A stretch of DNA of 64,000 bases from an uncultured Candidatus Saccharibacteria bacterium (GCA_964385105.1 CAYLMU010000002.1:53672-117671); one strand, 5' to 3'; counted from the stretch's first letter, positions 39,879 to 56,505 are shown. A program made the numbers and translations. Notes: a model not told the origin generated them from the sequence alone.

Positions 39879-41657
39879 ATGTTAGATACAAAAATTGATA
39901 CAAACAAAGGAATAGAAGATGTACTGTATGAGCGTAACCTTATTAATGCCGACCAGTTGTCTGCCATTAAATTTGAACACGTTAATACCGGTAAAAATAC
40001 TCAGCAAATTATTAAAGAGCGCGGTTACGTAACAAATGAGGATTTTGTTAAAGCGTATGCGGAAGTATATGGAATTGAGTATATTAATCTGGAAGAAACC
40101 AAATTTGATAATACTGTATTAGATATTTTAAGCATTCAAATTGAAAAAAGGTATCAGGTTGTGCCATATAGGCTTGAAGGGGATATTTTGCATGTGGCAA
40201 TGGCTGACCCCTTAGATTTACAAACTATTGAGTTTTTAGAGCAAAAATCCGGATATCAGATAAAACCTTACGTTTCAACAGTTAAAGAAATAGAAAAAGT
40301 ATTAAGTGAGCAGCAAGGAAAAGCAATAACTCAAGAAATAAGTGCTGCAATGGAGGAGATTTCGCAGACTACCTTAAAGCTTAAGGGTGACTCGGGAGAT
40401 ATTGAAGCTGATGAAGCAACAATTAGAGATGCCCCGATTGCAAGAATTGTTGGAATGATACTTGAAACGGCAGTAAAAATAGGTGCATCCGACATTCACA
40501 TAGAACCTTTAGAAACTTTAACAAGACTGCGCTACCGAGTTGACGGTGTTTTGCTTGAAAAAAGGACTTTTCCTAGAGAAATGCACGATTCTATTGTTGC
40601 CCGTATAAAAATCCTGGGAAACATGAAAATTGATGAGAAAAGAATTCCTTTGGACGGCAGGTTTAAGGTTCAGGTGGGTGAAACAAGTACAGACCTTAGA
40701 ATTTCAACTCTACCTTCGGTTTATGGTGAAAAAGTTGTTATCAGGTTGTTAAAAGAAGAAGGAAATGTTTACACATTTAAAGATTTGGGGTTGCGTGGTT
40801 TGTCGCTAAAAAGATTTGAAGAAGCATTAATTAAACCGGTTGGGATGGTTTTGGTAACAGGGCCTACGGGTTCGGGTAAAACGGTTACAAATGCTACTGC
40901 TTTAAATAAATTAAATACAATAAAAGTAAATATTGTGTCAATTGAAGACCCTGTTGAAATTAGGGTGCCCGGTGTAACACATGTTCAGGTAAATCCTCAG
41001 GCAGGTTTAACATTTGCAACAGGATTAAGGTCATTTTTGCGACAAGACCCAAACATTATAATGGTGGGAGAGATACGAGACCAGGAAACTGCTGAACTTG
41101 CAGTACATGCCGCGTTAACGGGGCATTTAGTTATATCCACATTACACACAAATTCCGCAGCCGGTGCTCTACCCCGTTTACTTGATATGGAAGTAGAAAA
41201 CTTTTTATTGGCGTCTACTGTAAATGCTGTTTTAGCACAAAGACTTGTTAGAAGAATTTGTGAGTTTTGCAAAGAATCATATGAGGCTCCCGTAGAAGTT
41301 GTTGCAGAGATTAAGAAAGTTTTTGAAGATATTGAACCAAGCTCAACCATAATGCACAAAGACAAAGAAATTGCCGAAGCTATTAAAAAGATTAAAACCG
41401 ACAGTAAAATTGATTTATATAGAGGTAAAGGTTGTGATAAATGTGGGGGTAAAGGTTATAAAGGCCGAGTTGGAATATTTGAAGTTCTTGAAATGTCAGG
41501 CACAATTGCTCATTTAACATTAGAAAGTGCCCCTGCCGACAAAATTGAGAAAGCAGCAAAAGATGAAGGCATGATAACATTAATGCAAGATGGATATTTG
41601 CGTGTTGTTGAGGGTGTTACAACGCTTGAAGAAGTTATGAGAGTAGCAAAAAGTTAG
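39879..41657 (+). CDS. pilB: Type IV pilus assembly ATPase PilB (GspE family) with N-terminal MshEN-like domain and zinc finger
   Basis: Walker A GPTGSGKTVT; Asp box; His box; CDKCGGKGYKGRVGIFEVLE tetra-Cys motif. Confidence 0.9.
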   Translation: MLDTKIDTNKGIEDVLYERNLINADQLSAIKFEHVNTGKNTQQIIKERGYVTNEDFVKAYAEVYGIEYINLEETKFDNTVLDILSIQIEKRYQVVPYRLEGDILHVAMADPLDLQTIEFLEQKSGYQIKPYVSTVKEIEKVLSEQQGKAITQEISAAMEEISQTTLKLKGDSGDIEADEATIRDAPIARIVGMILETAVKIGASDIHIEPLETLTRLRYRVDGVLLEKRTFPREMHDSIVARIKILGNMKIDEKRIPLDGRFKVQVGETSTDLRISTLPSVYGEKVVIRLLKEEGNVYTFKDLGLRGLSLKRFEEALIKPVGMVLVTGPTGSGKTVTNATALNKLNTIKVNIVSIEDPVEIRVPGVTHVQVNPQAGLTFATGLRSFLRQDPNIIMVGEIRDQETAELAVHAALTGHLVISTLHTNSAAGALPRLLDMEVENFLLASTVNAVLAQRLVRRICEFCKESYEAPVEVVAEIKKVFEDIEPSSTIMHKDKEIAEAIKKIKTDSKIDLYRGKGCDKCGGKGYKGRVGIFEVLEMSGTIAHLTLESAPADKIEKAAKDEGMITLMQDGYLRVVEGVTTLEEVMRVAKS

Positions 41658-41682
41658 TATTTAAGTTTTAGGAGCCCTGCCC

Positions 41683-42762
41683 ATGGCTTTAAACACATCA
41701 CAAATATTAGAAAAAATTATTGAGCTGAGTGCATCAGACTTGCATTTAACTGTTGGAATGCCTCCTGTTATTAGAGTTAACACAAAATTAATGGTTCTTA
41801 AAGACCATAGTGTGTTAACTATTGATGAAATCTCACAATTTTTAACAAAAGTTTTAACACCTGAACAAAAAAATGTATTTGAAGTAAACAAAGAAGTGGA
41901 CTTTTCAGTAGCTCTTGGTAATAAAGCAAGGTTTAGGGTAAATGCTTTTTATCAAAAGGGTTACCCTTCGGTAGCGTTAAGAACAATACCAATGGTAGTT
42001 CCCTCTTTAGAAAGTTTACATTTACCTCCGGTACTTACAAAACTCACGCTTTTAAAGCAAGGGCTTGTTTTAGTTGTTGGACCCACCGGGCATGGTAAAT
42101 CTACCACAATTGCGTCAATGATTGACCACATTAATGAAACACGCTCTGAACATATTCTTACAATTGAAGACCCTATTGAATATATTTTTACAAATAAAAG
42201 ATCACTGGTTGAGCAAAGAGAAATGTATCTTGATACCCATTCATGGGATGCGGCTTTACGTTCTATTTTAAGGCAAGATCCAAATGTTGTATTTATTGGC
42301 GAGATGCGTGACACCGAAACAATTCAGTCAACATTAACAATTGCAGAAACGGGCCATTTGGTATTTGCAACACTTCATACAAATTCAGCGTCTCAAAGTG
42401 TAGACAGAATTATTAGTTCGTTTCCCGAAATTAAGCAACTTCAAATAAAAATGCAGCTTTCACAAGCTTTGGAAGCAGTTGTATCTCAGCGATTAATCGA
42501 ATCCCCCAACAAAGGAATGATTCCTGCAATTGAATTATTGTTAGCCAGCGACGCGGTTAAAAGTACAATAAGAGAAGGTAAAACACATCAGCTTGAAAAT
42601 ATTATAAGTACAAGCTCAAACATTGGAATGATAAATATGGAATCAAGTTTGGCACTTTTGGTTCAAAAAGGCGATATAACCATGGATAATGCATTAAAGT
42701 TTGCAATGAATCCTGAGTTATTGCGTCGCCTGTTAAAAAGTTATAGTTCAACAGAAAAATAA
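41683..42762 (+). CDS. pilT: Twitching-motility (retraction) ATPase PilT
   Basis: GPTGHGKSTT, GEMRD and AIRNLIRE-like motifs; 359 aa; AGGAG SD. Confidence 0.9.
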   Translation: MALNTSQILEKIIELSASDLHLTVGMPPVIRVNTKLMVLKDHSVLTIDEISQFLTKVLTPEQKNVFEVNKEVDFSVALGNKARFRVNAFYQKGYPSVALRTIPMVVPSLESLHLPPVLTKLTLLKQGLVLVVGPTGHGKSTTIASMIDHINETRSEHILTIEDPIEYIFTNKRSLVEQREMYLDTHSWDAALRSILRQDPNVVFIGEMRDTETIQSTLTIAETGHLVFATLHTNSASQSVDRIISSFPEIKQLQIKMQLSQALEAVVSQRLIESPNKGMIPAIELLLASDAVKSTIREGKTHQLENIISTSSNIGMINMESSLALLVQKGDITMDNALKFAMNPELLRRLLKSYSSTEK

Positions 42763-42768
42763 AACAAT

Positions 42769-43971
42769 ATGGCCGAATTTAACTACATTGCAATGGATAA
42801 TAAAGGTACAAGAAAATCAGGTACCGTTGATGCCCGTTCACGGGATACAGCTGTTTCACTTTTAAAAGAGCAAGGATACTACGTTTTATCACTTGAAGAA
42901 AAAAAATCTACATTTATGGATTCGTTTATAGAATTACGAGGTGTGCCGTTTGGTGACGTTGTTTCATTTACAAGGCAGTTTTCTACAATGATAGGAGCCG
43001 GTTTGGCTATTTCAAAAGCATTAAATGTACTGGCCGCACAAACTACAAATAATAAATTCAGAGGAATATTAAATGATGTATTGCGCGATGTAGAAGGAGG
43101 AGCGTCGTTAGCCGGGGCTTTGGGAAGGTTTCCTGACACTTTTTCTACAACATATCAGTCCTTGGTGGCTGCGGGTGAAGCGTCTGGCCGTCTGGATGAG
43201 ATTTTAAAAAGGCTTGCAGATACAATGGAGGCTGAGAGAGCCTTAAGGGCTAAATTTAAATCTGCAATGATTTATCCGGTAATAGTTTTAATTGCAATGG
43301 GAGGTGTTTTTATTATTTTAATGGTGTCTGTTGTACCTAAGCTTGCACAACTTTACGAAAGCATGAATATAGACCTTCCTTTAACCACTAAAATGATGAT
43401 TGCAGTATCGGAATTTATGTCTAATAATCTTATTTTGGTGATTTTAGGCATTTTTGGAACAATTCTTGGAATTCGATACTTTTTGCACACTCCCGGCGGC
43501 GAACTATTAAAATCAAGACTTTCACTTTCTATGCCTGTTTTTGGAAAGATAAATAAAAAGAAAGAATTAACCGAATTTACACGAACATTAGGTTTATTGG
43601 TAAATTCAGCAGTACCCATTGTAGATGCTTTAAATATTGTTAGTTCAGTTGTTACAAGCGAGGCGTATCGTGAAGGTGCAAAACAGGCAGCCGTGAGTAT
43701 AGAAAAAGGCGGAACTTTATCAAATTATTTAAAGCAAAATGAAAATTTTCCTCCAATTCTAGGAAACATGGTAGCCACAGGTGAAGAAACAGGAAAACTT
43801 GATGAAATTTTAGAAAGACTAGCCGACTTTTTTGACGAAGAAACAGAACATGCGGTTGAGAGTTTATCTGCCGCACTTGAGCCTGTGATATTAATTTTAC
43901 TTGGTGCAATGGTTGGATTTTTGATCATTTCGATTATTACACCTATTTACAAAATTACTGCTTCTATATAG
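42769..43971 (+). CDS. pilC: Type IV pilus platform protein PilC (GspF family)
   Basis: Two GspF repeats and 3 TM helices; N-terminal MAEFNYIAMDNKGTRKSGTVDA. Confidence 0.9.
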   Translation: MAEFNYIAMDNKGTRKSGTVDARSRDTAVSLLKEQGYYVLSLEEKKSTFMDSFIELRGVPFGDVVSFTRQFSTMIGAGLAISKALNVLAAQTTNNKFRGILNDVLRDVEGGASLAGALGRFPDTFSTTYQSLVAAGEASGRLDEILKRLADTMEAERALRAKFKSAMIYPVIVLIAMGGVFIILMVSVVPKLAQLYESMNIDLPLTTKMMIAVSEFMSNNLILVILGIFGTILGIRYFLHTPGGELLKSRLSLSMPVFGKINKKKELTEFTRTLGLLVNSAVPIVDALNIVSSVVTSEAYREGAKQAAVSIEKGGTLSNYLKQNENFPPILGNMVATGEETGKLDEILERLADFFDEETEHAVESLSAALEPVILILLGAMVGFLIISIITPIYKITASI

Positions 43972-44001
43972 CAAAATTACTGAAAGGGGGTGACAGAGAA
44001 A

Positions 44002-44511
44002 ATGAGAAATGGAAATAAAGGTTTTACGTTAGTTGAGCTTTTGATTGTTGTTGCAATTATTGGTATTTTAGCCGGTGCTGTGTTAATTGTTATTAACCCT
44101 ACCGAATTAATTAGAAGAAGCAATGACTCAAAAAGATTATCTGAGCTTGATACATTGAATAAAGCTCTTATTTTAGCAACAACCGATGGTGAAATAGTAT
44201 TAACAGCATGTGCTTCAAACTGTACTAGCGCAACAGGAACACAATCTATTGCCGGTTCGGGTTATGTCACATTCACAATTAATACAGGTATGACCGGATT
44301 AGGAAAATATCTTTCTACACTGCCTGTTGATCCGGTTAATGACACTGCAAGAGGTTTGTACTACTCTTACCAGGCAGATGCAACCAACCAGACATTTGAG
44401 TTAAACGCAGTTCTTGAGTCTTCACAGAACAGTGGAAGAATGGCAGCAGATGGTGGTAACGATAACGCAGTATTTGAGATTGGAACAGATCCCGGTCTTG
44501 ATTTACTATAA
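44002..44511 (+). CDS. pilA: Type IV pilin (class III signal: MRNGNKG|FTLVELLIVVAIIGILA)
   Basis: Prepilin cleavage site G/FTLVE with Glu at +5; AAAGGGGG SD; own terminator downstream. Confidence 0.8.
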   Translation: MRNGNKGFTLVELLIVVAIIGILAGAVLIVINPTELIRRSNDSKRLSELDTLNKALILATTDGEIVLTACASNCTSATGTQSIAGSGYVTFTINTGMTGLGKYLSTLPVDPVNDTARGLYYSYQADATNQTFELNAVLESSQNSGRMAADGGNDNAVFEIGTDPGLDLL

Positions 44512-44546
44512 AGCGTTATTATAAAGCTTAGCTTTGTATTAAAGCA

Positions 44547-44586
44547 AAAAGACCTGCTTATTTAATAAGCAGGTCTTTTGTTATAC
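44547..44586 (+). terminator. Rho-independent terminator after pilA
   Basis: aaaagacctgcttatttaataagcaggtcttttgtt. Confidence 0.6.
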
Positions 44587-44594
44587 TTTAAAGT

Positions 44595-45476
44595 ATGGAA
44601 ATTTTATTCTATGGGCTAGTATTTATTGCCGGTTTATTTATAGGTTCTTTTTTAAACGTAGTTTCAGACCGAGTGGTAAACGGTAAAAAACTTTTACTTG
44701 GACGCTCTGAATGTGATGAATGCCGCACCACACTTGGTTCAAAAGACCTTGTTCCCCTACTCTCTTTTATATCTTTGCGTGGCAAGTGCCGGTATTGTAA
44801 AGCAAAACTTTCATACTACTACCCTATTTCAGAAATTCTAACCGGATTAGTATTTGTTGGAATTGCACATTTACTCAACTTTTTTGAAAACGCCAACAAT
44901 TATTATGCGTGGGTTATGCTGGCATATTTAATTTTTATCGGAAGTGTTTACATTGTGCTATTTTTAACTGATATTAAATATACGCTAATACCCAATAAAG
45001 TGGTCTATCCTGCTATAGCCGTAATTGTATTATTCCTAATCGGAAACTTTTTGTACATAGTTTATAGTTCTTACAATAGTTTGCAAAGTGATGCTTTAGG
45101 CCCTTATTTAATCGAATCCGGTTTTTGGCAATTGCAAATGAGGCGAATGTTTATGGGGCTGGTTTACACTTTTATAAGTACTGTTGTAATTGCAGGGTTT
45201 TTTTGGGTATTGACGCGTATTAAAAATGGTGAAGCAATGGGCGGAGGAGACTTAAAACTTGCTATTTTAATTGGTTTGTTTAACGGATACCCGCGCAATA
45301 TTTTGGCAATTTTTTTGGGATTTTTATTTGGAGCTATAGCTAGTGTGCTGCTAATGTTCTTAAGGCGTAAAGGTATGAAGGATACTATTCCTTTTGGGCC
45401 GTTTTTGATTTTAGGAAGTGTTATTGCGTTTGTTTTTGGTAATAGGTTGATTGAGCTATATTGGGGGTTGTTTTAG
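44595..45476 (+). CDS. pilD: Prepilin peptidase PilD (A24 family) with N-terminal tetra-Cys zinc motif
   Basis: CDECRTTL...CRYCKAKL; 8 TM helices; catalytic Asp regions. Confidence 0.85.
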   Translation: MEILFYGLVFIAGLFIGSFLNVVSDRVVNGKKLLLGRSECDECRTTLGSKDLVPLLSFISLRGKCRYCKAKLSYYYPISEILTGLVFVGIAHLLNFFENANNYYAWVMLAYLIFIGSVYIVLFLTDIKYTLIPNKVVYPAIAVIVLFLIGNFLYIVYSSYNSLQSDALGPYLIESGFWQLQMRRMFMGLVYTFISTVVIAGFFWVLTRIKNGEAMGGGDLKLAILIGLFNGYPRNILAIFLGFLFGAIASVLLMFLRRKGMKDTIPFGPFLILGSVIAFVFGNRLIELYWGLF

Positions 45477-46251
45477 GGTTTGTTTTTTAAGGAGTAGTGT
45501 TTACTTAGTACTGTAGCTACTATTTTATGAAGCACTTCGTCTTCCACTATTTTCATTGAATACGTCCTAAAAAAGTCTGCAAGATGGTATGAAGCATACA
45601 TTAATGGGTCATCTCCATATTTATGACCGACTTCAATATATTTTTTAAGTCCGTAGTTTAATCCGTGTATGGGTATATCCCCCATTTCTACATCGTCAAA
45701 AAATTCTTTGTTGAAAACTTTTACTAAATCTAATGCTGCTTTTTCGTGTTCGGGAGTTGCGTTTTTATATTGATAAAGATAGTAAGCAGTATTTAAATTT
45801 TGGAGTAGGTGTTTTTTAAGTATAGATGCATTATAAACTACATAATTATATTGAATAATTGAAATATTCTTTAAGCTAGAGGTATAGTTTCTGGGGTCCT
45901 TAAAAACCCATACTAAGTGCTTAAAATTAACATGTCCCAGTCATACGCGCGACTACAAGTAACTGTGCTACTTGATGTAAATTTATAAATGGGAATAGAT
46001 TTTTGCCCCTATCTATTCTCATAAGATGCGTTTACTAGGGGCTTAGAGTTGTATACCAAGAATAATGAAACTTCAAATTTAGGAGCATATGTAAATTATT
46101 TTATTGTTAGCTTTTGAACGTGAGTTTGGTGTAGAATTTGATGGGGATTTTAAAGGCAGGACACCCCATAGTTGCATTACTTTACTGATACTGTATAATA
46201 GTCCGTAATTTAGAAATAACCGGCATAAGCCGGATAGCTCCTGGAGAGAAA

Positions 46252-46629
46252 ATGATGAAAAGATTAACCCTTTTAGTTCTGGTAGTGGTAGGGATGATTG
46301 TTACTTTGGGAATCAATGGTAGTGCTTTGTCATCGCCAGATGTTTCTGGCGGAGCACTTGAAATTGGGACTCCGGTAATCGTAATCCGTTATGATGGGGG
46401 GCAGTTAACAGTTGCTACGCTTGAACCATCCTCAAGAGTTTTTGACTTTGAGGTGGATGTAGCATCTGTTACTTTCCTAGAGTGTGGAGCCGTTGAACAC
46501 GTCCCCGTGTTTGCAGGTGATACAGGACTATTTGCCGGAATTTCCGAGGAAGTGTGGAGTAACGAACGTGTTGCAAGATTTAATCTTCAACAGCCGTTTG
46601 ATGCCTGCAACATCCTATACGGTAGATAG
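46252..46629 (+). CDS. Small secreted protein (125 aa) with signal peptide; GC-rich gene
   Basis: MMKRLTLLVLVVVGMIVTLGINGSALS; GGAGAG SD; hairpin terminator at about 46645-46690. Confidence 0.5.
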   Translation: MMKRLTLLVLVVVGMIVTLGINGSALSSPDVSGGALEIGTPVIVIRYDGGQLTVATLEPSSRVFDFEVDVASVTFLECGAVEHVPVFAGDTGLFAGISEEVWSNERVARFNLQQPFDACNILYGR

Positions 46630-46712
46630 CACTTTGTTTGTAAATCCGGATCGGTTTGTTTGCTTATGGTAAACATAGCCGATCCGTTTCATTCCGATTT
46701 AGCTAAATATCA

Positions 46713-46741
46713 TTGACATGTAAAAAAATCATTGTCATAAT
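46713..46741 (+). promoter_or_regulatory. Candidate promoter (TTGACA, 17 nt, CATAAT with an upstream TGT) that would give a leaderless or very short-leader mRNA for the 46750 gene
   Basis: cattgacatgtaaaaaaatcattgtcataatttattgtaATG. Confidence 0.35.
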
Positions 46742-46749
46742 TTATTGTA

Positions 46750-47376
46750 ATGTCCAATTATAGCCCCGAAATAAATTTGAATCTTAGTGAAAGTAGACGT
46801 GGGAATAGAAATTTGATCCTTGTTTCACTCCTAATAATTTTTGTTTTTGCTGTCACTTTATTGCTAATTTATACATATTATTTAAATTCAACAACTGAAA
46901 ATCAGGCCAAAGAAGACTCAGATATGTTGTTAAATACAGTTCCGCAGGATAGCTATAATGTAGTGTTTCCCAATGTTTCCTATTCAATTGATGCTGATGG
47001 AATGTGGAGACTAAAAGTATTTCAACCTATACTTAAAGAATTCGTATCTGAAAACGGGAATAATTATTTAGTGGTGGAATATGATGAAGGCAGTACAAAA
47101 GTTTCAAAAAGAGTGTTTGTAACGTCTAATAATACGGAATATTTGGATAGGATATCATTTAAAGAAGGTGATAACTTAAAACTTGTAACATTCGATGAAT
47201 TAAAGCAATTATTAAATACTGAAGGGCGGATTAGTATAAGTTATTTTGAAACAACCCCCACTATTGAATCGCTTACGGATGATTTTTGTTCCAATTTAGT
47301 TAGAAGATGCGCTTTAGCACGTTTGGATGTGGAGTATAAAAGCTATTTCATATCAAGTGAGGTTATAGAGCAATAA
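46750..47376 (+). CDS. Hypothetical N-terminally membrane-anchored protein (208 aa)
   Basis: TM helix LILVSLLIIFVFAVTLLLIYTYY; its stop overlaps the start of the next gene. Confidence 0.5.
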   Translation: MSNYSPEINLNLSESRRGNRNLILVSLLIIFVFAVTLLLIYTYYLNSTTENQAKEDSDMLLNTVPQDSYNVVFPNVSYSIDADGMWRLKVFQPILKEFVSENGNNYLVVEYDEGSTKVSKRVFVTSNNTEYLDRISFKEGDNLKLVTFDELKQLLNTEGRISISYFETTPTIESLTDDFCSNLVRRCALARLDVEYKSYFISSEVIEQ

Positions 47377-50354
47377 TGAAGAAAATTAAGTTTATTATTT
47401 TTTTTACAATTTTTTTACTTACATTTTTATATATTAACAAAAGCAATGTATTAAATGCTTATAGTGATATATTTTGTTCTGCTGGACAATATTGTTCTGG
47501 TGTAGGTACATATCAGAAACGCGTTGGATGTGTTACGGTTCCAGATAACGACAACTATGCAAGTTGTGTCACTCAGTACTCATCACAACCTGTTGTGTGT
47601 CTACAAAGTGACTGTACATATGAAGGTTTTGAGACAGGGAGTTGGTGCCGAGAAAGTGTAATTCACATTGATAGGCAGGGTGCGTGTACTACAATAACTG
47701 ATGATTACTATGTGTCGGGTACCTGTTGTCAGCAAGCCGGAGGATCTACTGGATACTGTGGTGATGGGGTGTGTCGTGCTGGAGAAAGTAATTCGAGTTG
47801 TCCTGCAGATTGTCCTCCCCCACCGCCTCCTCCTGATCCGGAAGCCTATTGTGGAGATGGTACCATAGACCCTGGCGAAACATGCAGTAATTGTCCGGCA
47901 GATGTTGGTGCTTGTCAAAATTTCTGCGGGTGTCTTCCTGATCGGTGCAATAGAGACGAATCGCAATGGCCCGGTAATGGCAGTTGCATAAGAACACCTG
48001 ATTGTGGAGCAAATATTTGCCCGGGGGGCGCACATGGTTGGTACTGTGCCTGGCCAAATAGTAACGCCTGTAACAATCCGGGTCCAGCTACAGAAAATGT
48101 TGTAGGTTATGTGAAAGATCAAAACGGCAGTCCGGTAAGTGGTGTGCCTATGACAATTCTTTACAAAAACAGTAGTGGTACCACAATATCTGGTACAGAC
48201 ACTAGAGTGACAGACTCTAATGGTAGGTTTGTATTTGAGAATTTGATAAATAGGCAACATTATGAAGTCAAACCAGGCCTCACCGCCGACCAAATGTTAG
48301 CATGGGGTTTCACAAGTGCTGGAACTGCCGAAGCATGCGGTAATGATTACAACTGCAAAAACCACTTTAATGGAGGTGCTCAGGTACCGGTAGGTTCGCC
48401 ATCATATAATGGCCAAAGAGTTGGGGAAATTGGGTTTGACGGTACTATGCACGGTGATGGTTGTGGTGCAAGAAAATGTTATGTTGGACCAAACTCCACC
48501 GGTGTCTGTAATGATGGCAACCGTGGAAGTTATTCGGGATCAATCGTACACCACTCAGAATGGCCATCCGGTGGGCACTGTAACTTTGTATTCAACAGGC
48601 AAACAAACAACCCTCCTACCGGTTACTTTCACTATTTAGCACATTACAGGGGTACAACACTTCTTGGTGTATGGGGAAACAATAGTAATATTGGTAATGG
48701 TGTTGTTATATACCCACCTGCTCCGCCAGCTCCCATTGGTCAAATATTTGTACAGCCGGGAGATCATATTTTAATGTATGGTACCGGCCATGATTCCGAT
48801 GCTAACTTAGGGCGTATAAGATTTATAAAACAAAAATTCAATCCTGAAACAAATGCCGTAATCGGAACTTATTCATATATGCCTGCAACAACTCAAACCA
48901 ACTGTTCTCCAAGTTCAACATGTTATGAAAATGGCGGTGAGGTTTGGAATATTACTGCAGCAGACGTAGGTACCTGGTCAGTAAGCATTGAAGTTGGCGA
49001 TCGTACAATGGTTAATTATGATTTGAATAATTTAAATAGTACATTCAACAGCAGATGCTCCGGTCATAGATGGGTAAACCCATTAAAATGGAGTGACTGC
49101 GGAAACGGTGATACATTTACCGTTCATGTAAGAATTCCTCCTACTTATACAATTTCCGGAGAAATAAGAGAAATTGTGCCACTACCTACAGGGCATCAAT
49201 GTGCATCGCACAATTTAGATTTTATGAATAACTCAAAAATAAGTAATGATGGCAGTTTAGATTCAACCGGTAATGATGACCCTCGCGAACAGTTTTATTC
49301 GACTAATCAGTCGGCTCCACCAAATCCGGATGATGGGGATTGGGAAAGTACGCCTGGTAACGGCTTTGAAATTAGGGGTGTTCCACCAGGAACGGGAAGG
49401 TTTCTGGCCGCAAGTACACTTCATGTGGATCGTCACAATGGTATAGGATATAGGTTAAAGTGTATATCTGTTCCCGGATTCGGCGTACATGACCTTTCTA
49501 GTGGTACAACACCCAACTTTGTTAACATCACACAAAATTTAAGTGGAGTAAGATTTGGTTACGAATACTTTCTTACATACAACAGCGGATGGCTACAAGG
49601 TTGGGACGGTGACGTTTTTGGAGGATCTACCGTTAACTTTAATATCCATCCGGATCAGAGATTAGGCAGGGGTCTTGCCACTGCATTCTCGGGTAACTTT
49701 GTGTCCGGAGTGGCTCCGGCGAAAAGAGCAGAATCAAACCGCTGGGCAAACAATGTTTCAGACTCATTTTGGCCTCCACAATTCAGCACTGAAGCTCCTG
49801 CAGGAGCCATTCAAATTTCAAACTTAAGTAACTTGGCTGAAAACACTATTTATAAAATAACGGCTACAGAACTTAATGCAATATTAAATCAGCAGGGACG
49901 GTTAGATTACACTATTGCTAATATAGCCGGAAGTCCGGGGGGCGTTGCACTTGTTTATGTAACCGGTACAAATACAGTAACAGTTAACAGAAGTATGGTA
50001 AGTGCAGATGACCCGCGCGATAGAATTTTATTTATATCAGAAGCACCATTTGTATATGCTGTACCTACAGTCCCAACTCAACCTGGTTCGGCACAGATTC
50101 AGTTTGGTTTGATTACCACAAGTTCAATTACATTTCCAACCCTAGTAGCAGAAAACAGTCCATTTCCTGACACGTCGGTATCTGTTGAAGGGCCGTTAAT
50201 TGCTAAAGGAGACATTGTAGTTGAAAGAAATCTTAAAGAAGGAAATGCTCAAACTCCTGCAGTAAGAGTATTATATAGCCGGGTTTATCTTGATAGTATA
50301 AGAAGATTTGAAAATCCGTTAAGGCAGTATAGTGTTAGATGGGAGACAAATTAA
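47376..50354 (+). CDS. Large secreted Cys-rich protein (992 aa) with a poly-Pro linker and a CarboxypepD_reg-like/Cna-B-like beta-sandwich segment. By position it is a candidate pilus-associated adhesin
   Basis: Signal peptide MKKIKFIIFFTIFLLTFLYI; more than 30 Cys in the first 280 aa; PPPPPPPDPEAYCGDG; VVGYVKDQNGSPVSGVPMTILYKNSSG...TDSNGRFVFENL. Confidence 0.6.
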   Translation: MKKIKFIIFFTIFLLTFLYINKSNVLNAYSDIFCSAGQYCSGVGTYQKRVGCVTVPDNDNYASCVTQYSSQPVVCLQSDCTYEGFETGSWCRESVIHIDRQGACTTITDDYYVSGTCCQQAGGSTGYCGDGVCRAGESNSSCPADCPPPPPPPDPEAYCGDGTIDPGETCSNCPADVGACQNFCGCLPDRCNRDESQWPGNGSCIRTPDCGANICPGGAHGWYCAWPNSNACNNPGPATENVVGYVKDQNGSPVSGVPMTILYKNSSGTTISGTDTRVTDSNGRFVFENLINRQHYEVKPGLTADQMLAWGFTSAGTAEACGNDYNCKNHFNGGAQVPVGSPSYNGQRVGEIGFDGTMHGDGCGARKCYVGPNSTGVCNDGNRGSYSGSIVHHSEWPSGGHCNFVFNRQTNNPPTGYFHYLAHYRGTTLLGVWGNNSNIGNGVVIYPPAPPAPIGQIFVQPGDHILMYGTGHDSDANLGRIRFIKQKFNPETNAVIGTYSYMPATTQTNCSPSSTCYENGGEVWNITAADVGTWSVSIEVGDRTMVNYDLNNLNSTFNSRCSGHRWVNPLKWSDCGNGDTFTVHVRIPPTYTISGEIREIVPLPTGHQCASHNLDFMNNSKISNDGSLDSTGNDDPREQFYSTNQSAPPNPDDGDWESTPGNGFEIRGVPPGTGRFLAASTLHVDRHNGIGYRLKCISVPGFGVHDLSSGTTPNFVNITQNLSGVRFGYEYFLTYNSGWLQGWDGDVFGGSTVNFNIHPDQRLGRGLATAFSGNFVSGVAPAKRAESNRWANNVSDSFWPPQFSTEAPAGAIQISNLSNLAENTIYKITATELNAILNQQGRLDYTIANIAGSPGGVALVYVTGTNTVTVNRSMVSADDPRDRILFISEAPFVYAVPTVPTQPGSAQIQFGLITTSSITFPTLVAENSPFPDTSVSVEGPLIAKGDIVVERNLKEGNAQTPAVRVLYSRVYLDSIRRFENPLRQYSVRWETN

Positions 50355-50355
50355 C

Positions 50356-51327
50356 ATGAATAAAAAAATAGTCAACAATTCAGAAAAAGGACAAGTTTTA
50401 CTTTTTGTAATAGTAGCGATGACTATTGTGTTGGCACTGGGTGTTGGTGTATCGCTTGATACTATTTCATCAATAACACAGGTAAGCAACACTGATACGT
50501 CTCAAAGGTCACTTGCGGCAGCAGAAGGCGGAGTTGAGAAGTTTTTGGTACTTGATAATTCTTTGTTACGACAGTTTGCTGATATTGCCGGGAGTCCTAA
50601 TGACGGTAGATGGCCATTATTATGTGCCAATATACCTGGTGTGACAACAGAACCTTTAGAAGGTGGGGGCTATGCCGGTTGTAAAGTAACTTACCAGGGT
50701 GCAACAGGAGCAAATGGAGATCCCATTGACGCTAAAGCTGTAGTTAAAGTTGAGGAATATACAACTAATACTACTACCGGAAATGGGTCAGAGATAAATA
50801 TTTTGAGAAATGATGTAGGTGAATTTGATTTACGAGGATATACACATTCTAACTTAACAATGTGTTGGAATCATAATAATGCAATTGACCTTTATGTAAC
50901 CGGCCATACCTATGTAGCCCCACAAACAACAAAAATCATATTAAGATGTCAAAACTGTGGTAATGGTTCACAATGGGATTTTGGAACAGCAAACGTACTT
51001 ACTGCAACTAGTTCTGGCAATGGATATACATCTTGCAGACAGCTCCAAATAAGCCAGGGTCATTTTCCTAGCAACCCAGCTTTTATAAGAGTAAGACCAT
51101 TATTTAAAGCTTCTCCACCTGTACAAAGCGTTGAGGTTGCAATATTCCCGCAGGGAGGTCACAGTTTACCTGTTCAAGGCTACAAAATCACATCTGTAGG
51201 GTCACTTACCGACAATACAAACGTTCAGGTCACACGAACTGTAACAGTATATAAATCAAATCCCACTCCTATAGGATTATTTGATTTTTCTGTGTATTCC
51301 GGTGAAGACCTTTACTCGATTTTATAG
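50356..51327 (+). CDS. PilX-like minor pilin/pilus-associated protein (non-cleaved hydrophobic N-terminus)
   Basis: MNKKIVNNSEKGQVLLFVIVAMTIVLALGVGVSL; paralog of the 54645 gene. Confidence 0.5.
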   Translation: MNKKIVNNSEKGQVLLFVIVAMTIVLALGVGVSLDTISSITQVSNTDTSQRSLAAAEGGVEKFLVLDNSLLRQFADIAGSPNDGRWPLLCANIPGVTTEPLEGGGYAGCKVTYQGATGANGDPIDAKAVVKVEEYTTNTTTGNGSEINILRNDVGEFDLRGYTHSNLTMCWNHNNAIDLYVTGHTYVAPQTTKIILRCQNCGNGSQWDFGTANVLTATSSGNGYTSCRQLQISQGHFPSNPAFIRVRPLFKASPPVQSVEVAIFPQGGHSLPVQGYKITSVGSLTDNTNVQVTRTVTVYKSNPTPIGLFDFSVYSGEDLYSIL

Positions 51328-51457
51328 CTTAATAAATGTTTGATTATTGACAGTATATAATTGCTGGTTCATACTTAAATATAGTAAGTCTGCCCATGTT
51401 AAACATTAAACAAATTTTAAAAAAATTTCATATACAAAACTTAAATAACGAAGGGAG

Positions 51458-51901
51458 GTGCAGAGCATGTTAAAGAGAACTAATGAAAAAGGTTTTACGT
51501 TAGTTGAGCTTTTGATCGTTATTGTAATTATTGGTATCTTGGCAGGATTAGTTATTACAATTATTAATCCTCGAAGAATGCAAATGAGATCAGGCCATTC
51601 AATTATAAGGGCTAATGTCGGTAGGGCTTGTCAAGCGATTATTGCATGTGCTTCTTCAACAACAACACCTGAAACATCTTGTAACACTGGTGCTTTAGCT
51701 GGATTTAATCAACCAAATACACCTAATGGTCAACCGTATCCAGTTAACCCTACTGTTAGTGCGCAAACGATTACATATGCAAATACACCTGTTGCTGCAT
51801 GGGATAACTGTCAATATACTTGCACATACTATAGGACTACTGTTGGTGGAAACCAAGGTGGTTCAAGCACTTTAGTAGGAACAAACTGTATCGACAACTA
51901 A
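51458..51901 (+). CDS. Type IV pilin and major-pilin candidate (MLKRTNEKG|FTLVELLIVIVIIGILAG)
   Basis: GAAGGGAGGTG SD; candidate upstream promoter (TTGACA at about 51345); strong terminator immediately downstream; 4 Cys in the C-terminal half. Confidence 0.8.
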   Translation: MQSMLKRTNEKGFTLVELLIVIVIIGILAGLVITIINPRRMQMRSGHSIIRANVGRACQAIIACASSTTTPETSCNTGALAGFNQPNTPNGQPYPVNPTVSAQTITYANTPVAAWDNCQYTCTYYRTTVGGNQGGSSTLVGTNCIDN

Positions 51902-51923
51902 CAACTTGCAAGAATTATTTTCA

Positions 51924-51953
51924 ACCGCCCCGGATATTCCGGGGCTTTTTTTT
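51924..51953 (+). terminator. Rho-independent terminator
   Basis: gccccggatattccggggc tttttttt. Confidence 0.7.
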
Positions 51954-51992
51954 AGCCTTGACACAAAAATAACATACAGCCATACTATAAAT

Positions 51993-52508
51993 ATGAAAAA
52001 ACTGCCCCGAGGTTTTACTATTATTGAGCTTTTAATTGCTGTTGTACTTATTGGAATACTTTCAGGACTCGTTATTGCAGTTATTAATCCCCGTACGTTT
52101 CAAGGCAGGGGTCGTGACGCTCAAAGAGTTAGCGACTTAAAAACAATTCAATCTGCACTTGAACTTTATTTTTCGGATAATAGACGTTACCCTATTTCCG
52201 CTTGGACAAGAATACGTGGCAACGATACTGTAACAAATGCGCTCACAAGCGGAAACTATATAAACTCAGTACCTGTTGATCCCATGGCTTCTGGCTCACA
52301 AGATAATCCATGCGGGGGCGGTATAACCGGTTACAATTACCGATACAGATCTACCGAAACTGGCACAGCATACGTGTTAACAGCTACAATGGAGAATGCT
52401 AATTCAAATCAGGGTAATGAATGTAACGGATTAAATAGATGGAGTGCGTTAGGATGTTCATTATCTGCGCGAATGGCTGATGTGTGCTATGGAGTTGAAA
52501 ATCCTTAA
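51993..52508 (+). CDS. Pseudopilin/minor pilin (MKKLPRG|FTIIELLIAVVLIGILSG), GspG/PilE-like
   Basis: Class III signal with Glu at +5; the track ORF begins at 51906 but the pilin leader begins at the ATG at 51993. Confidence 0.7.
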   Translation: MKKLPRGFTIIELLIAVVLIGILSGLVIAVINPRTFQGRGRDAQRVSDLKTIQSALELYFSDNRRYPISAWTRIRGNDTVTNALTSGNYINSVPVDPMASGSQDNPCGGGITGYNYRYRSTETGTAYVLTATMENANSNQGNECNGLNRWSALGCSLSARMADVCYGVENP

Positions 52509-53001
52509 AAAAACTGATTCAAACTATGACCAAGGTATATCCATAATTGAAGTCCTTGTAGTTATTACAATGGTTGCCTTACTATCTACTCTAGCATTTG
52601 TGTTAATAAATCCACAGGAACTCAAGGCTAAAGCACGCGATGAAAAGCGTTTATCTGATATATCAACATTAGAACGTGTTATAAGTGAATTTAGAGTTGA
52701 TAACGGGTATTTACCCGATGAATTGGGTGTAATTAGAACCAGTACTTCCCTACCCACAGGAGCTTTGGGCCCTCTTGTACAATCAAACGGCAACGGATGG
52801 ATTCCTGTAAATTTATCTGTATATAATTCTTTGCTTCCAATTGACCCGATTAATAATGAAACGTATCATTACAGCTACAGTAATAACGGTTATTCATTTG
52901 AACTAAATGCCCGTTTAGAAATTCTCACCGAGCATGCCCAGGATGACGGCGGTAATGACGGTACGCTTTATGAAGTAGGTGATGATTTGAGCATTATTTA
53001 G
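52489..53001 (+). CDS. Pseudopilin/minor pilin (QG|ISIIEVLVVITMVALLS)
   Basis: Prepilin-like N-terminus; overlaps the upstream gene. Confidence 0.6.
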   Translation: MELKILKKTDSNYDQGISIIEVLVVITMVALLSTLAFVLINPQELKAKARDEKRLSDISTLERVISEFRVDNGYLPDELGVIRTSTSLPTGALGPLVQSNGNGWIPVNLSVYNSLLPIDPINNETYHYSYSNNGYSFELNARLEILTEHAQDDGGNDGTLYEVGDDLSII

Positions 53002-53016
53002 TGTTATTATTTTAGT

Positions 53017-53580
53017 ATGAGTCTGCCCGATTTTAGTAATAATTCCCAAGGTTTCACAATTATTGAGATTCTAGTAGTAGTTTCACTAATTGCTATATTA
53101 ACCGGGCTCACAATACCAAACTTTACAAGTTATTTAAGGGCACAGGCGTTAAAACAAGCTCAAGATCAAATTGTTGTAGATTTAAGAAAAATTCAAAACA
53201 GAGCTTTATCGGGTGTTGGTTATCAGCCAAACGGAAATACAACTCACTGGGGTGTTTTGTTTAGAAATAACACTAATACATACCACTATTTTATTGCATC
53301 AAGAAACCCCATAAACTATTCTTCATCTTGTAACGATGCGTTAACAAATGTGGGTAGTCTTGAATCAAGTAGCCCACTTCCCGAAAACATAGTCATTAGA
53401 ATGGCAAGTGCCCCAATTCAGTGTATATATTTTGATTTTGAACGGGGTAATAGGGTGAGTCATCCATCAAGTTTGACTACCATTAGAGTTTCGCGTCCCG
53501 GAGATACACAATGTATTGGCATTGAAACAACTAATGTAGGCCGTATAGCAAGTCTTTCAAATCCTTTGTCATGCAACTAA
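53017..53580 (+). CDS. Pseudopilin/minor pilin, FimT/GspH-like (SQG|FTIIEILVVVSLIAILTG)
   Basis: Class III signal. Confidence 0.65.
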   Translation: MSLPDFSNNSQGFTIIEILVVVSLIAILTGLTIPNFTSYLRAQALKQAQDQIVVDLRKIQNRALSGVGYQPNGNTTHWGVLFRNNTNTYHYFIASRNPINYSSSCNDALTNVGSLESSSPLPENIVIRMASAPIQCIYFDFERGNRVSHPSSLTTIRVSRPGDTQCIGIETTNVGRIASLSNPLSCN

Positions 53581-54068
53581 AAAAACTAAACGAAAAAGGA
53601 ATAGGATTAGTAGAAACAATAATTGCACTTGGCGTTGCTGTAATTGTTATAACATCCCTTGTGTCACTTTCGGTTTATACCTTGCGTACCTCTAATCGCG
53701 GAAAATTATATTTACAAGGCTCAAAGCAGGCTAATGAGGGTTTAGAACTTGTGAGAGCATTTAGAGATCAACAGCCGACCTGGAACGATGTTATTGTTGC
53801 ATTTCAAAATTGCGATAATGGAGCATTGTGCCACATATCTACAAGCGGTTCTTCTTTGTCGCCGCGACCTGGAGAATTTATAAACACAAATGGTACGACC
53901 GCTACTGCTGACGACGTGTTTTGGTACTTTACTGCCAGGGGTTCAGGAAGTAATATAACCGCCACCGACAATGTAATAAGAATTCAGGTTAGATCCAGAT
54001 GGTTTGTTGGAGATGATGAAGTTGATGCTTATGTTTACACTGATCTTTCAAACTGGAGGAACAGGTAA
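53571..54068 (+). CDS. Pseudopilin/minor pilin, PilV/GspI-like (NEKG|IGLVETIIALGVAVIV)
   Basis: Class III signal; overlaps the neighbouring genes. Confidence 0.6.
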   Translation: MQLKKLNEKGIGLVETIIALGVAVIVITSLVSLSVYTLRTSNRGKLYLQGSKQANEGLELVRAFRDQQPTWNDVIVAFQNCDNGALCHISTSGSSLSPRPGEFINTNGTTATADDVFWYFTARGSGSNITATDNVIRIQVRSRWFVGDDEVDAYVYTDLSNWRNR

Positions 54069-54069
54069 C

Positions 54070-54642
54070 ATGAACCAAAAGGGTTTTACGCTTGTGGAAT
54101 TACTAGTGATCATTACACTTTTGGCTGTTACGGCCGGCGTTACTGCAGATATTGTATTAACACTGGTTAGAAGCTATAACAAAACCCGTGTTACTAATGA
54201 AGTTGAACAAGTAGGTAATTTTGCCATAACCAAAATAGAAAAAGAGCTAAGATCGGCAACAAGTGTAGTATCACCGAGCATTGGCGCAAGTAGCAATTCA
54301 ATATGTTTTTTAACAAAAATAGGAAATAATGATCGAAGTGTACAGTATGTGGTAGATCCGGTGTCGGGATTATTAAGAAGATCGGAGTTTACAAATTCAA
54401 GTGGTTGTACTGGTGGAACAGTACCTGCAGGTACTGATCCTGTGTTTAGCGTAGGTCAGGGAGGGGTAAGAATTTCAGGTGCCAGTGCTAATTCGGCATT
54501 TACCCGCTTAAGTACCTCACCAGATGTTGTAAAAATTAAATTTGAATTTACGCAATCTAGCGAAGATTCTGCAGGAGGAAGGGCATTTACCGGAAACGTA
54601 ATACTTGAACAAACAGTTGTAGTTCGTGGAACTTACAATTAA
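54070..54642 (+). CDS. Pseudopilin/minor pilin, PilW/GspJ-like (MNQKG|FTLVELLVIITLLAV)
   Basis: GGAGG SD upstream of the ATG at 54070; the track ORF starts earlier at 54004. Confidence 0.65.
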   Translation: MNQKGFTLVELLVIITLLAVTAGVTADIVLTLVRSYNKTRVTNEVEQVGNFAITKIEKELRSATSVVSPSIGASSNSICFLTKIGNNDRSVQYVVDPVSGLLRRSEFTNSSGCTGGTVPAGTDPVFSVGQGGVRISGASANSAFTRLSTSPDVVKIKFEFTQSSEDSAGGRAFTGNVILEQTVVVRGTYN

Positions 54643-54644
54643 CC

Positions 54645-55457
54645 ATGAAACAAGAAAATTCCCAAAAAGGACAAACTTTAATAATTATAGTTTTTATCAT
54701 GATTGCCGCCCTCGCAATTGGTGTGAGTGTATCAAACAGATTTATTACAACTTTATCTATTACAAGTGACGCTTATGCCGGTTATCAGGCTCAGGCTGTA
54801 GCAGAAGCAGCGATTGAAAATATTTTGACTTTAACATCTACACAGCTCAAAGAATTTATTCAATTTAATTCTTGTGGTTCATACTGCCAGCTTGAAATTG
54901 TGGGTCCTGACGGTGTTGTTCAAACCGCAACTGTTACATTAAGCACTTTAGGAACTGATTCTCAGCCTTTTACTACTCGTTTAAGTAGAGATGAAATTAC
55001 AGAAATTAATTTAAACGGGTATGGTAATAATAAAACACTAAGTGTTTGTTGGAATGCACCACCATCAGGAGAATTACCTTCGGTTTATGGAATTTTACTC
55101 AGAGGTACACAAGGCAATTATGTTGCAAATAACTATGCATATTACTCAGCAGGAAGCAGTCAAATTAATGGATTTTCACCGGCAGTAAGCGCTAACGGGT
55201 ATCAAAATTGCATGATTTTAAATACAGGAACAAACCCGCAGGCACTAAGAGTGAGGTCGATTTATAATGATGTTGAAGTCACAGTGATACCTGATTCAAG
55301 TGCTACATTGCCCACTCAAGGAATCTTAATAGAATCCGTTGGGCGTGTTCAAGACAGTGTAAAAACAGTTTCGGTTATAAAATCAGAAAACATGGTTCCG
55401 CTTGATTTTGACTACATTTTGTATCAAAAATCCGAATCAGAGCCTTTATCAAATTAA
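54645..55457 (+). CDS. PilX-like protein, paralog of 50356-51327
   Basis: MKQENSQKGQTLIIIVFIMIAALAIGVSVS. Confidence 0.5.
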   Translation: MKQENSQKGQTLIIIVFIMIAALAIGVSVSNRFITTLSITSDAYAGYQAQAVAEAAIENILTLTSTQLKEFIQFNSCGSYCQLEIVGPDGVVQTATVTLSTLGTDSQPFTTRLSRDEITEINLNGYGNNKTLSVCWNAPPSGELPSVYGILLRGTQGNYVANNYAYYSAGSSQINGFSPAVSANGYQNCMILNTGTNPQALRVRSIYNDVEVTVIPDSSATLPTQGILIESVGRVQDSVKTVSVIKSENMVPLDFDYILYQKSESEPLSN

Positions 55458-55479: not shown

Positions 55480-56505
55480 ATGCCCCAAATCGGACTTGAT
55501 ATTGGAAGAAGCTTTTTTAGAGCTGTAGAAATAAAAAAAGATAAAGATGTGAATATTCTTCAGAATTACGGTACTTATGATGGTCCTGACCTTGATTTAA
55601 ACTTTTCAAGCGAAGACAGTATAAATACTTATGCCTCAGAATTAAGCCATTTTTTTAAAGAACATAATTTTAGTACTTCTAAGGTAGTAGTGGCACTGCC
55701 CGAACAATATGTTTTTATAAGAACAATAAAAGCTCCAAATATGTCACATAAAGAATTGCGTGAGTTTGTGACCCTTGGTGCAGAAGAATACATTCCCCTG
55801 CCCTTAAATCAAGTTACTTTTGATGCACAAATTATTGAATCAAACGGCAAAGACGAAATGAGTGTGCTTTTGGTAGCCTCAAAAAATGAAATCTTAACAA
55901 AATATGTTGATTTAATAAAACGTGCCGGCCTCATACCTGTTGGTATGGAGCCTGAAACTTTATCTATTGAAAGAGTGTTGGGTGATACGGGTCAAAGACC
56001 AAGTGCCAGTATTATTGTAAATATCGGTACTGCATCAACACAAATTATAGTTACATACAAAGGTTTTGTAAGATTTACTAGAAGTTTGTCTGTTGGCGGC
56101 GATACCTTAACAAAAGCTATTGAAAAAAACCTTGAACTTGATTATCACCAGGCTGAAGAATATAAAAAAGCCTATGGTTTGGATGAGAGTCAGGTGGATG
56201 GCAAGGTTTTTAACGCGGTAAAAACAGTTTTTGACAACATTTTGCTTGAAATAAAGCGTTCCAAAACATACTATACAACTCACAATCCCGATGTTACTAT
56301 AAATAGAGTTATTATGTCTGGAGGTACTGCCCTAATGCCGGGACTATTACTTTATATAGCCAATAAACTTGATGTGGAAGTAGAATTGGCAAATCCGTGG
56401 CGAAACATTAAATTGGCGGAATCTCTCAAAAATCATCGAAATGACCTTATGGATGCAGGTCCTGTGTATGCAACAAGTGTAGGACTTTCGTTAAAGGAAA
56501 TCTAA
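55480..56505 (+). CDS. pilM: Type IV pilus assembly protein PilM (actin-like ATPase fold)
   Basis: IGLDIGRSFFRAVEI... FtsA/PilM-like with two RNase H-like subdomains. Confidence 0.8.
   Translation: MPQIGLDIGRSFFRAVEIKKDKDVNILQNYGTYDGPDLDLNFSSEDSINTYASELSHFFKEHNFSTSKVVVALPEQYVFIRTIKAPNMSHKELREFVTLGAEEYIPLPLNQVTFDAQIIESNGKDEMSVLLVASKNEILTKYVDLIKRAGLIPVGMEPETLSIERVLGDTGQRPSASIIVNIGTASTQIIVTYKGFVRFTRSLSVGGDTLTKAIEKNLELDYHQAEEYKKAYGLDESQVDGKVFNAVKTVFDNILLEIKRSKTYYTTHNPDVTINRVIMSGGTALMPGLLLYIANKLDVEVELANPWRNIKLAESLKNHRNDLMDAGPVYATSVGLSLKEI

Follow-up and report, generated by a model that had tools for sequence, protein, structure and literature searches.

A secreted protein with a predicted beta-solenoid, encoded before a PilX-like gene, is a candidate tip-associated component of type IV pili in Candidate Phyla Radiation bacteria

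The open reading frame (ORF) at positions 47376-50354 of a 64,000-nucleotide (nt) stretch of DNA from an uncultured Candidatus Saccharibacteria bacterium (GCA_964385105.1, CAYLMU010000002.1:53672-117671; the whole stretch is referred to here as the window) encodes a 992-amino-acid (aa) protein within a type IV pilus (T4P) operon. From its gene context, conservation pattern and predicted fold, this protein is on balance somewhat probably a Sec-exported non-pilin accessory protein of the T4P in the Candidate Phyla Radiation (CPR), and a tip adhesin or cap working like PilY1. The CPR, or Patescibacteria, account for much of the diversity of bacteria and have a host-attached way of life, and the T4P is the one device for attachment and motility which nearly all of them keep. 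To our knowledge, host recognition by the CPR pilus tip is known only tentatively, and only for the oral Saccharibacteria (PilX2). The protein family presented here, for which no published description was found in the searchable literature, is a concrete candidate for other CPR lineages, including environmental Saccharibacteria-labelled metagenome-assembled genomes (MAGs), WWE3 and others.

The ORF is uninterrupted over 992 codons, from the ATG at 47376 to the TAA at 50352-50354 on the plus strand, as are the pilus genes described below. Its start overlaps by 1 nt (TAATG) the stop of an upstream gene for a 208-aa single-pass (bitopic) membrane protein (46750-47376). Downstream, 2 nt separate its stop from the next ATG (50356), which begins the gene for a pilin-like protein without Glu5, named PilXa here, and a canonical pilin gene follows at 51458. 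A preliminary description of the window had reported the 992-aa protein, its translational coupling to the membrane-protein gene and its position directly before a PilX-like gene and a pilin, and all three observations were confirmed.

The order PilB-PilT-PilC-pilin-PilD, bitopic protein, large protein, PilXa, pilins, a second PilX-like protein (PilXb) and PilMNO was shared among genomes. The large protein was encoded in the same slot in the window and in loci L001 (protein P0002), L005/L006 (P0009), L007 (P0010), L008 (P0012), L009 (P0013) and L010 (P0016), and after the removal of duplicates about 20 distinct Patescibacteria loci shared the cassette arrangement. Homologues with enough flanking sequence lie between PilD and the minor-pilin array, directly before PilXa, which agrees with the membership in the pilus locus proposed earlier; relatives do carry the gene in their T4P loci.

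The association was also assessed independently of the large protein, by fetching loci through PilXa alone with a five-sequence PilXa alignment. In all of the GTDB loci obtained in this way (9/9), an ORF carrying the C-terminal solenoid domain of the large protein was located immediately upstream of PilXa, with expectation values (E) of 1e-29 to 1e-117. These nine loci belonged to Saccharibacteria-labelled MAGs, WWE3 and one 'Patescibacteria group' MAG, and where there was enough flanking sequence the rest of the operon was found in the same order. The same adjacency of solenoid protein and PilXa was observed in the metagenome loci with enough upstream sequence, with three exceptions, one of which is the L033/L034 contig described below. 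The protein of L023 is clearly related by its motifs and was missed by the hidden Markov model (A2) even at E up to 10, and L035 gave a 45-residue partial match and probably holds no true PilXa. In L016 (3-5924) the pair of large protein and PilXa is present twice in tandem, i.e. it was duplicated as a unit. The distances of the solenoid and of PilXa were correlated when PilM was controlled for (partial Mantel r 0.48, permutation p ~0.003), and no co-variation was observed between the solenoid and PilXb (r 0.10, p 0.26).

A bitopic protein of about 170-320 aa is encoded directly before the large gene in 13 of 14 loci, with sequence homology detectable in five of them, and the upstream gene overlaps the large gene in each of the seven loci with called genes. 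The 208-aa protein of the window has one transmembrane helix near residue 25, is homologous to the upstream proteins of L001, L007, L008 and L015, and has no Pfam or NCBIfam match above threshold. In another reading, the large protein would be an adhesin that is secreted or found on the cell surface, expressed together with the pilus genes and not pilus-borne, in the manner of the tapirins, and this positionally conserved and translationally coupled protein might hold it on the envelope. Tapirins, from Caldicellulosiruptor, are beta-helix proteins encoded next to a T4P operon. Two distant relatives outside T4P loci (P0007 and P0008) are likewise encoded behind small proteins, and the incorporation of the large protein into the pilus is something that we infer. 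Co-expression alone fails to explain the adjacency to PilXa, the duplication of the pair in L016 and the PilXa-specific co-variation, and the large protein itself carries no anchor motif. The tapirin model of NCBIfam (NF051896) has no match to the 992-aa protein and matches only the N-terminal 80 residues of PilXa (E 1.3e-4; 20 bits against a cut-off of 600 bits). Tapirins also differ in their type of beta-helix and in having no Cys-rich region. A surface adhesin of this kind is thought unlikely, and the reading as a pilus accessory protein is preferred.

A word-indexed search for homologues of the large protein recovered the protein itself, repeat-only matches and one full-length relative, P0002 (36% identical by BLASTP, with 32 of the 38 Cys conserved in the alignment); when made with the 26-sequence C-terminal alignment, it recovered three fragments only. 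An exhaustive profile search of 1.84 billion representatives resulted in 81 matches, about 25 of which share the C-terminal 330-400 residues, while the remainder share only Cys repeats of the CGDG type or an Ig-like segment. Family members range in length from 475 to 1811 aa, and all have a Sec-type leader, a Cys-dense N-terminus, a variable middle of Ig/FN3-like type and a conserved C-terminal module, which begins near GW...GDVYG and ends in ...YNPxYL...DIxW. Many members also have a prealbumin-like sandwich followed by a 'CNF' motif. The N-terminal Cys-rich part and the middle part vary in length and domain content, and the C-terminal module is conserved family-wide. In nearly all members both the solenoid and the whole mature protein are acidic (pI 4.1-5.4; net charge 0 to -45). 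The distant relatives P0007 and P0008 (L002 6734-12580; L003 1792-6740) have 54-56 mature Cys, many CGDG repeats and a weak solenoid match; their genes are found behind two or three genes for small proteins with a mutually shared C-terminal domain, beside lgt and lspA, and may represent a different surface system using a related module.

A Sec-type signal peptide was predicted at the N-terminus (47376-47459, residues 1-28), with cleavage likely after VLNA. Residues 2-22 form the sole hydrophobic segment of the protein, are modelled as a helix by AlphaFold2, and are followed by VLNA and then YS; AxA-type cleavage sites occur at the equivalent place in 26 of 26 homologues. No prepilin leader (G followed by FTLxE) was found at the N-terminus of the 992-aa protein. 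The signal peptide previously noted is therefore retained as a predicted one, of Sec type and not prepilin type, from its hydrophobic region and AxA-type site. No second hydrophobic segment or anchor motif was found in the protein, so its retention would need a partner.

The signal peptide is followed by a Cys-dense region (47460-48083, residues 29-236), in which 26 of the 38 Cys of the protein are found, between residues 31 and 232; the last Cys is at residue 696. The preliminary description was right in calling the N-terminus Cys-rich and overstated the number, given as more than 30 in roughly 280 residues, as the first 280 residues hold 26. The region contains two CGDG...CxxCPxDC-type repeats and a FCGC...WYC block with eight Cys (residues 183-232), and 21 of its 26 Cys are conserved in P0002. 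The PPPPPPPDPE tract was present as described, at residues 147-156 (47814-47843). It is written in mixed Pro codons and is thus not a slippery tract; phase variation of the gene was considered and rejected, as there are no tandem repeats in the gene in addition to the mixed codons. Without exception, the 26 homologues examined have an even Cys count in their mature part (a probability of 2^-26 if parity were random). Full pairing of the Cys as extracellular disulfides would give this result, and the parity suggests, indirectly, that the protein is disulfide-bonded. The CGDGxC...E(S/T)xxxCPADC repeats (47750-47920, residues ~126-180) match dozens of otherwise unrelated CPR proteins and have no match to a Pfam family; they appear to be a common extracellular Cys-repeat of the CPR.

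Next to the Cys-dense region is a prealbumin/CarboxypepD_reg-like beta-sandwich (48084-48323, residues 237-316). At residues 238-324 the Pfam families CarboxypepD_reg, Big_1 and SdrD_B were matched, all below their gathering scores (best E 6.4e-5; 23.7 bits against 32.3 for CarboxypepD_reg, PF13620, and 20.8 against 29.7 for SdrD_B), and the homologues P0009, P0010 and P0016 also gave matches to CarboxypepD_reg-like families at 27-31 bits, below threshold. AlphaFold2 modelled a confident beta-sandwich at residues 240-315, with a predicted local distance difference test score (pLDDT) of 75-89, and Foldseek related it to transthyretin-like and CnaB domains with a probability of ~1.0 but a weak E of 3e-3 to 3e-2. 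The CarboxypepD_reg/Cna-B-like segment which had been proposed is a sandwich in the model, possibly of the seven-stranded prealbumin-like kind, and all the Pfam matches behind the name are sub-threshold. Of the 10 Cys in the middle region (48324-49142, residues 317-589), nine are conserved in P0002. The region also carries, near residue 402, the 'CNF' motif found throughout the family, and at residues 455-545 AlphaFold2 modelled a beta-sandwich with moderate confidence.

The C-terminal module comprises a conserved beta-sandwich (49143-49583, residues 590-736) with the conserved pair C609 and C696, and directly after it a conserved, Cys-free right-handed beta-solenoid (49584-50354, residues 737-992), which starts at GWLQGWDGDVFG. 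At the end of the solenoid is a conserved tail (...W) that is poorly modelled and whose W989 is shared by at least 90% of members. For residues 589-992 with the 26-sequence alignment, AlphaFold2 gave a predicted template modelling score (pTM) of 0.71 and a pLDDT above 90 over ~180 residues. Foldseek comparison of this model with the PDB ranked an ice-binding protein first, weakly (E 0.017, probability 0.98), and by this model the solenoid is a triangular beta-solenoid like those of ice-binding proteins and ComZ (the IBP-1 fold). The full-length model was poor (mean pLDDT 55.8, with residues 316-450 and 546-674 not resolved) and gave only weak transthyretin-like/CnaB matches in Foldseek. For the module (residues ~590-992) there was no Pfam match and no PDB sequence match, and searches of the PDB sequences with the alignment profiles A1, A2 and A5 returned nothing meaningful; the module defines a new conserved domain without a Pfam or PDB entry. 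What had been described as a long beta-rich region with no recognisable motif does lack Pfam and PDB sequence matches, but it contains a conserved module with a recognisable fold.

The shape of the solenoid also brings in the reading of a beta-helix enzyme, a polysaccharide lyase or depolymerase cutting the host envelope, for which there are low-ranking fold matches and nothing more. Neither the 992-aa protein nor any of 10 homologues matched an enzyme family in Pfam or NCBIfam, and the dioxygenase matches in Foldseek, which have E above 1e-3, are confined to the transthyretin-like sandwich that the proteins share. No relationship to an unrelated enzyme family emerged from Pfam, NCBIfam or Foldseek, and the enzyme reading, which has a very slight probability, was rejected as no enzyme family was found in Pfam or NCBIfam. 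Similarly, neither Pfam nor NCBIfam gave a match to PilY1/PilC (PF05567) at E up to 1 and the C-terminal model is a beta-solenoid, in line with the earlier statement that a PilY1-like propeller is lacking.

The suggestion that the protein could have a new adhesin architecture was not borne out, as its ice-binding-protein/ComZ-like solenoid links it to known solenoid-bearing T4P tip pilins and it is not without precedent. ComZ is a tip pilin of the competence pilus in which a solenoid is inserted in a GspK-like pilin fold, and the nearest fold to that solenoid is an ice-binding protein (PMC6561018). The same solenoid is present in the PilX minor pilins of cyanobacteria and was proposed to replace PilY1 as the tip plug (bioRxiv 10.64898/2026.02.12.705559). 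With ComZ (Thermus thermophilus, PDB 6QVI) and the cyanobacterial PilX/HpsA-type proteins, the 992-aa protein would share the triangular beta-solenoid of the ice-binding-protein kind, as judged from the model, and it shares the partnership with a GspK/PilX-type pilin element without Glu5 and the occurrence in lineages without PilY1. In those systems a single polypeptide has an N-terminal pilin helix, and the solenoid is inserted between the last two strands of the pilin fold. In the 992-aa protein, by contrast, the solenoid is C-terminal on a separate, non-pilin protein with a signal peptide, the PilX-like pilin is the product of the neighbouring gene, and ~700 aa of Cys-rich and Ig-like domains are added. 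No pilin domain was modelled or matched in the 992-aa protein, 6qvi was not found with profiles A1 and A2 against the PDB sequences at E up to 10, and DUF3494 (PF11999) was matched by none of 26 C-terminal domains at E up to 1. The ice-binding proteins of the DUF3494/IBP-1 kind (PDB 3WP9, 7BWX, 6BG8 and 5UYT) are alike in their IBP-1 fold, according to the model, and differ in sequence (9-14% identity), in the flanking helix, which is short in the model of the 992-aa protein, and in context, which here is a pilus operon and not cold adaptation and offers no grounds for expecting a flat ice-binding face or antifreeze activity.

These comparisons allow a tentative reading, considered possible and rather doubtful, in which the large protein and PilXa are a two-gene ('split') version of the ComZ/cyanobacterial PilX tip unit. 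If this were true, the T4P of Deinococcota, Cyanobacteria and CPR would have the ice-binding-protein-like solenoid as their common tip cap, and in Proteobacteria this role would fall to the PilY1 propeller. The CPR solenoid would have become detached from the pilin and joined to an interchangeable disulfide-dense cap, and this cap would determine host recognition in these obligate episymbionts. The presence of two PilX paralogues and of two candidate major pilins in the operon would then point to two types of filament, and the large protein would cap only one of them.

The likeness to ComZ also raises the question of a pilus-tip DNA receptor, in which the solenoid would bind extracellular DNA for uptake. 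CPR bacteria need DNA uptake because they cannot make nucleotides. The retraction ATPase PilT is encoded in the locus, and the solenoid fold fits such a role. The acidity of the solenoid and the mature protein in nearly all members argues against ComZ-like DNA binding, however, and the DNA-binding lysines of ComZ sit between its pilin and solenoid domains, an arrangement which is absent here. The large, fast-evolving, disulfide-rich N-terminal region would in addition be unneeded for DNA binding, and a DNA receptor is regarded as improbable.

The organisation of the family is closest in logic to PilY1/PilC, which has a conserved C-terminal propeller and variable N-termini, is encoded with pilX and is located at the tip; beta-strand complementation is the predicted mode by which PilY1 binds PilX (PMC13190605, PMC11525922). 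Like PilY1/PilC of the type IVa pili of Proteobacteria and Myxococcota (PF05567), the large protein bears a signal peptide of Sec type in place of a prepilin leader, its gene adjoins a pilX gene without Glu5 in a minor-pilin cluster, it combines a conserved C-terminal module with a diversified N-terminal part and has no anchor of its own, and paralogue copies are present in some genomes. The differences are a seven-bladed beta-propeller in PilY1/PilC compared with a beta-sandwich and right-handed beta-solenoid here; an N-terminal vWA or DUF4114 domain compared with the disulfide-dense region and Ig-like sandwiches; and a gene located downstream of pilX compared with upstream. The carrier of the 992-aa gene also has no outer membrane or secretin to plug. 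The lack of an anchor, the conserved C-terminus with a diversified N-terminus and middle, the pairing with PilXa and the coupling to the minor-pilin operon together point to a PilY1-like logic.

On this basis a mechanism can be proposed. The cleavable signal peptide would direct export of the large protein, whose Cys would then all be oxidised to disulfides, and the protein would perhaps be held at the membrane by the translationally coupled upstream single-pass protein. Its C-terminal module, that is, the sandwich, the solenoid and the conserved tail, would dock on the Glu5-less, PilX/GspK-like PilXa, which would cap the minor-pilin priming complex. The tail is conserved (W989) yet has low confidence in the monomer model, which fits a segment that folds on a partner. 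Extension of the pilus would then carry the large protein outward at the pilus tip, with the Ig-like sandwiches as a stalk and the fast-evolving Cys-dense cap as the distal end in contact with a ligand, for which the host bacterium's surface is the most plausible candidate. Each of these steps, from export, oxidation and docking on PilXa to the tip location, adhesion and the part of the upstream protein, is one that we infer from the gene context, conservation pattern and fold discussed above, as is the tip-adhesin role as a whole.

The large protein might instead be a purely structural priming or cap factor, whose solenoid plugs the tip and starts or stabilises assembly and whose N-terminal part is a spacer or shield. 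PilY1 and the solenoid of cyanobacterial PilX have both been suggested to act as plugs (PMC11525922; bioRxiv 10.64898/2026.02.12.705559), the solenoid module is the conserved part of the family, and the N-terminus has no recognisable binding domain. The N-terminus is, however, long, costly and Cys-dense, and it is kept in every member while diverging in both sequence and length, which is typical of ligand-contacting ends. A cap function is moreover compatible with an adhesin role and does not exclude it, as PilY1 has both, and an exclusively structural role is very doubtful.

Several observations weigh against a tip adhesin that works like PilY1. On the L033/L034 metagenome contig the large gene is located ~3.7 kb from PilXa and is not adjacent to it, and L018 (11727-14108) and L019 (1847-4096) hold an extra copy of the solenoid protein without a PilXa of its own. 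P0007 and P0008, which share the Cys repeats and a weak C-terminal match, are outside T4P loci. The co-variation of solenoid and PilXa is only suggestive, being drawn from nine loci whose distances are close to saturation, and the cassette having been transferred as a whole could account for it in place of physical contact. PilXa itself is weakly assigned to the pilins, from the faint N-terminal matches in its sequence. The contact between PilXa and the large protein and the presence of the latter on the pilus are both proposed, and the structure models are of monomers. The Cys-dense region, for which a putative disulfide-knotted fold had been suggested earlier, had a pLDDT of 30-45 in the full-length AlphaFold2 model, with no fold obtained, and no recognisable binding domain was found in the N-terminal part, i.e. 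the proposed adhesive end. The likeness of the solenoid to ComZ and the ice-binding proteins is at the level of the fold only, with 9-14% identity, and beta-solenoids recur in many unrelated surface proteins.

Candidate tip and host-binding proteins of a CPR T4P were previously proposed in Nanosynbacter lyticus TM7x, namely PilX1 and PilX2 (PMC11623550). These resemble the large protein in having no PilD-type leader and in their bulky extra domains (PMC11623550), and differ, going by their description, in being pilin-like with a jelly-roll or an RCC1 beta-propeller. A large Cys-rich solenoid protein is not listed in the TM7x pilus loci (PMC11623550). The Pam (chaperone-usher-like) pilus system of the CPR was ruled out as the system concerned, as Pam uses different proteins and operons. 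What would be new here is a candidate T4P tip-associated accessory protein with a different and separately encoded docking module. The family points to the solenoid cap as an alternative that recurs in place of PilY1, and its variable Cys-rich end could mark host range in metagenomes.

The upstream machinery of the operon in the window comprises PilB (39870-41657), PilT (41683-42762), PilC (42769-43971), a pilin (43990-44511) and the prepilin peptidase PilD (44595-45476). The genes were identified from their translations, the family assignments being Pfam matches recorded on the syntenic homologues (T2SSE, T2SSF, N_methyl and Peptidase_A24) rather than on the window ORFs, and across 39870-45476 the identity to relatives is 45-73%. 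PilD and the cassette are separated by a poorly coding gap of 1.27 kb (45477-46749), in which an ORF of 125 aa with a signal-peptide-like N-terminus (46252-46629) is not conserved; in L001 this gap holds an unrelated 185-aa gene on the opposite strand. A promoter-like site (46713-46741, TTGACA-17-CATAAT with an upstream TG) is located 9 nt before the first gene of the cassette. It is a consensus match only, with 11 of 12 positions and the top score in 43900-52000, and the number of promoter-like sites found was not above shuffle expectation.

PilXa (50356-51327, 323 aa, without Glu5) has the N-terminus ...EKGQVLLFVIVAMTIVLALG (...KGQVLLFVIV...) and is 31-54% identical across loci; its weak N-terminal matches are the tapirin N-terminus mentioned above and, in one member, PilX_N (E 0.11). 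It is followed by six canonical pilin genes (51458-54642), recognised in translation by leaders in which G is followed by F/I-T/S/G-L/I-V/I-E and by N_methyl Pfam matches, and the same six-pilin array was found in relatives. The likely starts are 51458, ~51993, 52480, 53017, 53571 and ~54070. For the ORFs 51906-52508 and 54004-54642 the mechanical TTG starts are probably wrong, and the prepilin leaders begin at MKKLPRGFTIIELL (~51993, 3' of a terminator hairpin) and MNQKGFTLVELL (~54070). PilXb (54645-55457, 270 aa), a second PilX-like paralogue without Glu5, is ~25% identical to PilXa, is kept at the end of the pilin array in relatives and is not paired with a solenoid protein. There is thus a Glu5-less PilX paralogue at both the head and the end of the minor-pilin array, only the first of which (PilXa) pairs with the solenoid protein, and the two may correspond to two alternative tip complexes or two filament types. 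The operon continues with PilM (55480-56505) and PilN (56507-57091) and ends with PilO (57091-57963), all identified from translation, with PilM_2, PilN and PilO matches on the syntenic homologues.

Terminator-like hairpins (44547-44579 and 51927-51945) are located after the pilin genes 43990-44511 and 51458-51901, respectively. The second hairpin, after the first pilin of the array, is strong, with a stem of 8 bp including seven GC pairs and a T-run, and a promoter-like site (51347-51375) precedes the pilin 51458-51901. These two genes are candidate major pilins within one operon.

The G+C content over 48001-50000, within the 992-aa gene, was 0.427 compared with a window average of ~0.36, which is probably due to the Gly/Cys/Pro/Ala-rich composition of the protein rather than to transfer. 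The composition of the window and its nearest relatives assign it to the Patescibacteria/CPR. Antisense ORFs within the gene (47601-48293 and 47746-48057) were unsupported and are best read as by-products of the composition of the coding strand. Upstream of the operon (36986-39903) are a divergent holB gene (DNA polymerase III delta'), as in L010 and L001, and a likely gyrB, as in L010; trmD is found downstream, as in L001 and L009. These shared flanks indicate that the operon has kept its place on the chromosome in these CPR lineages.

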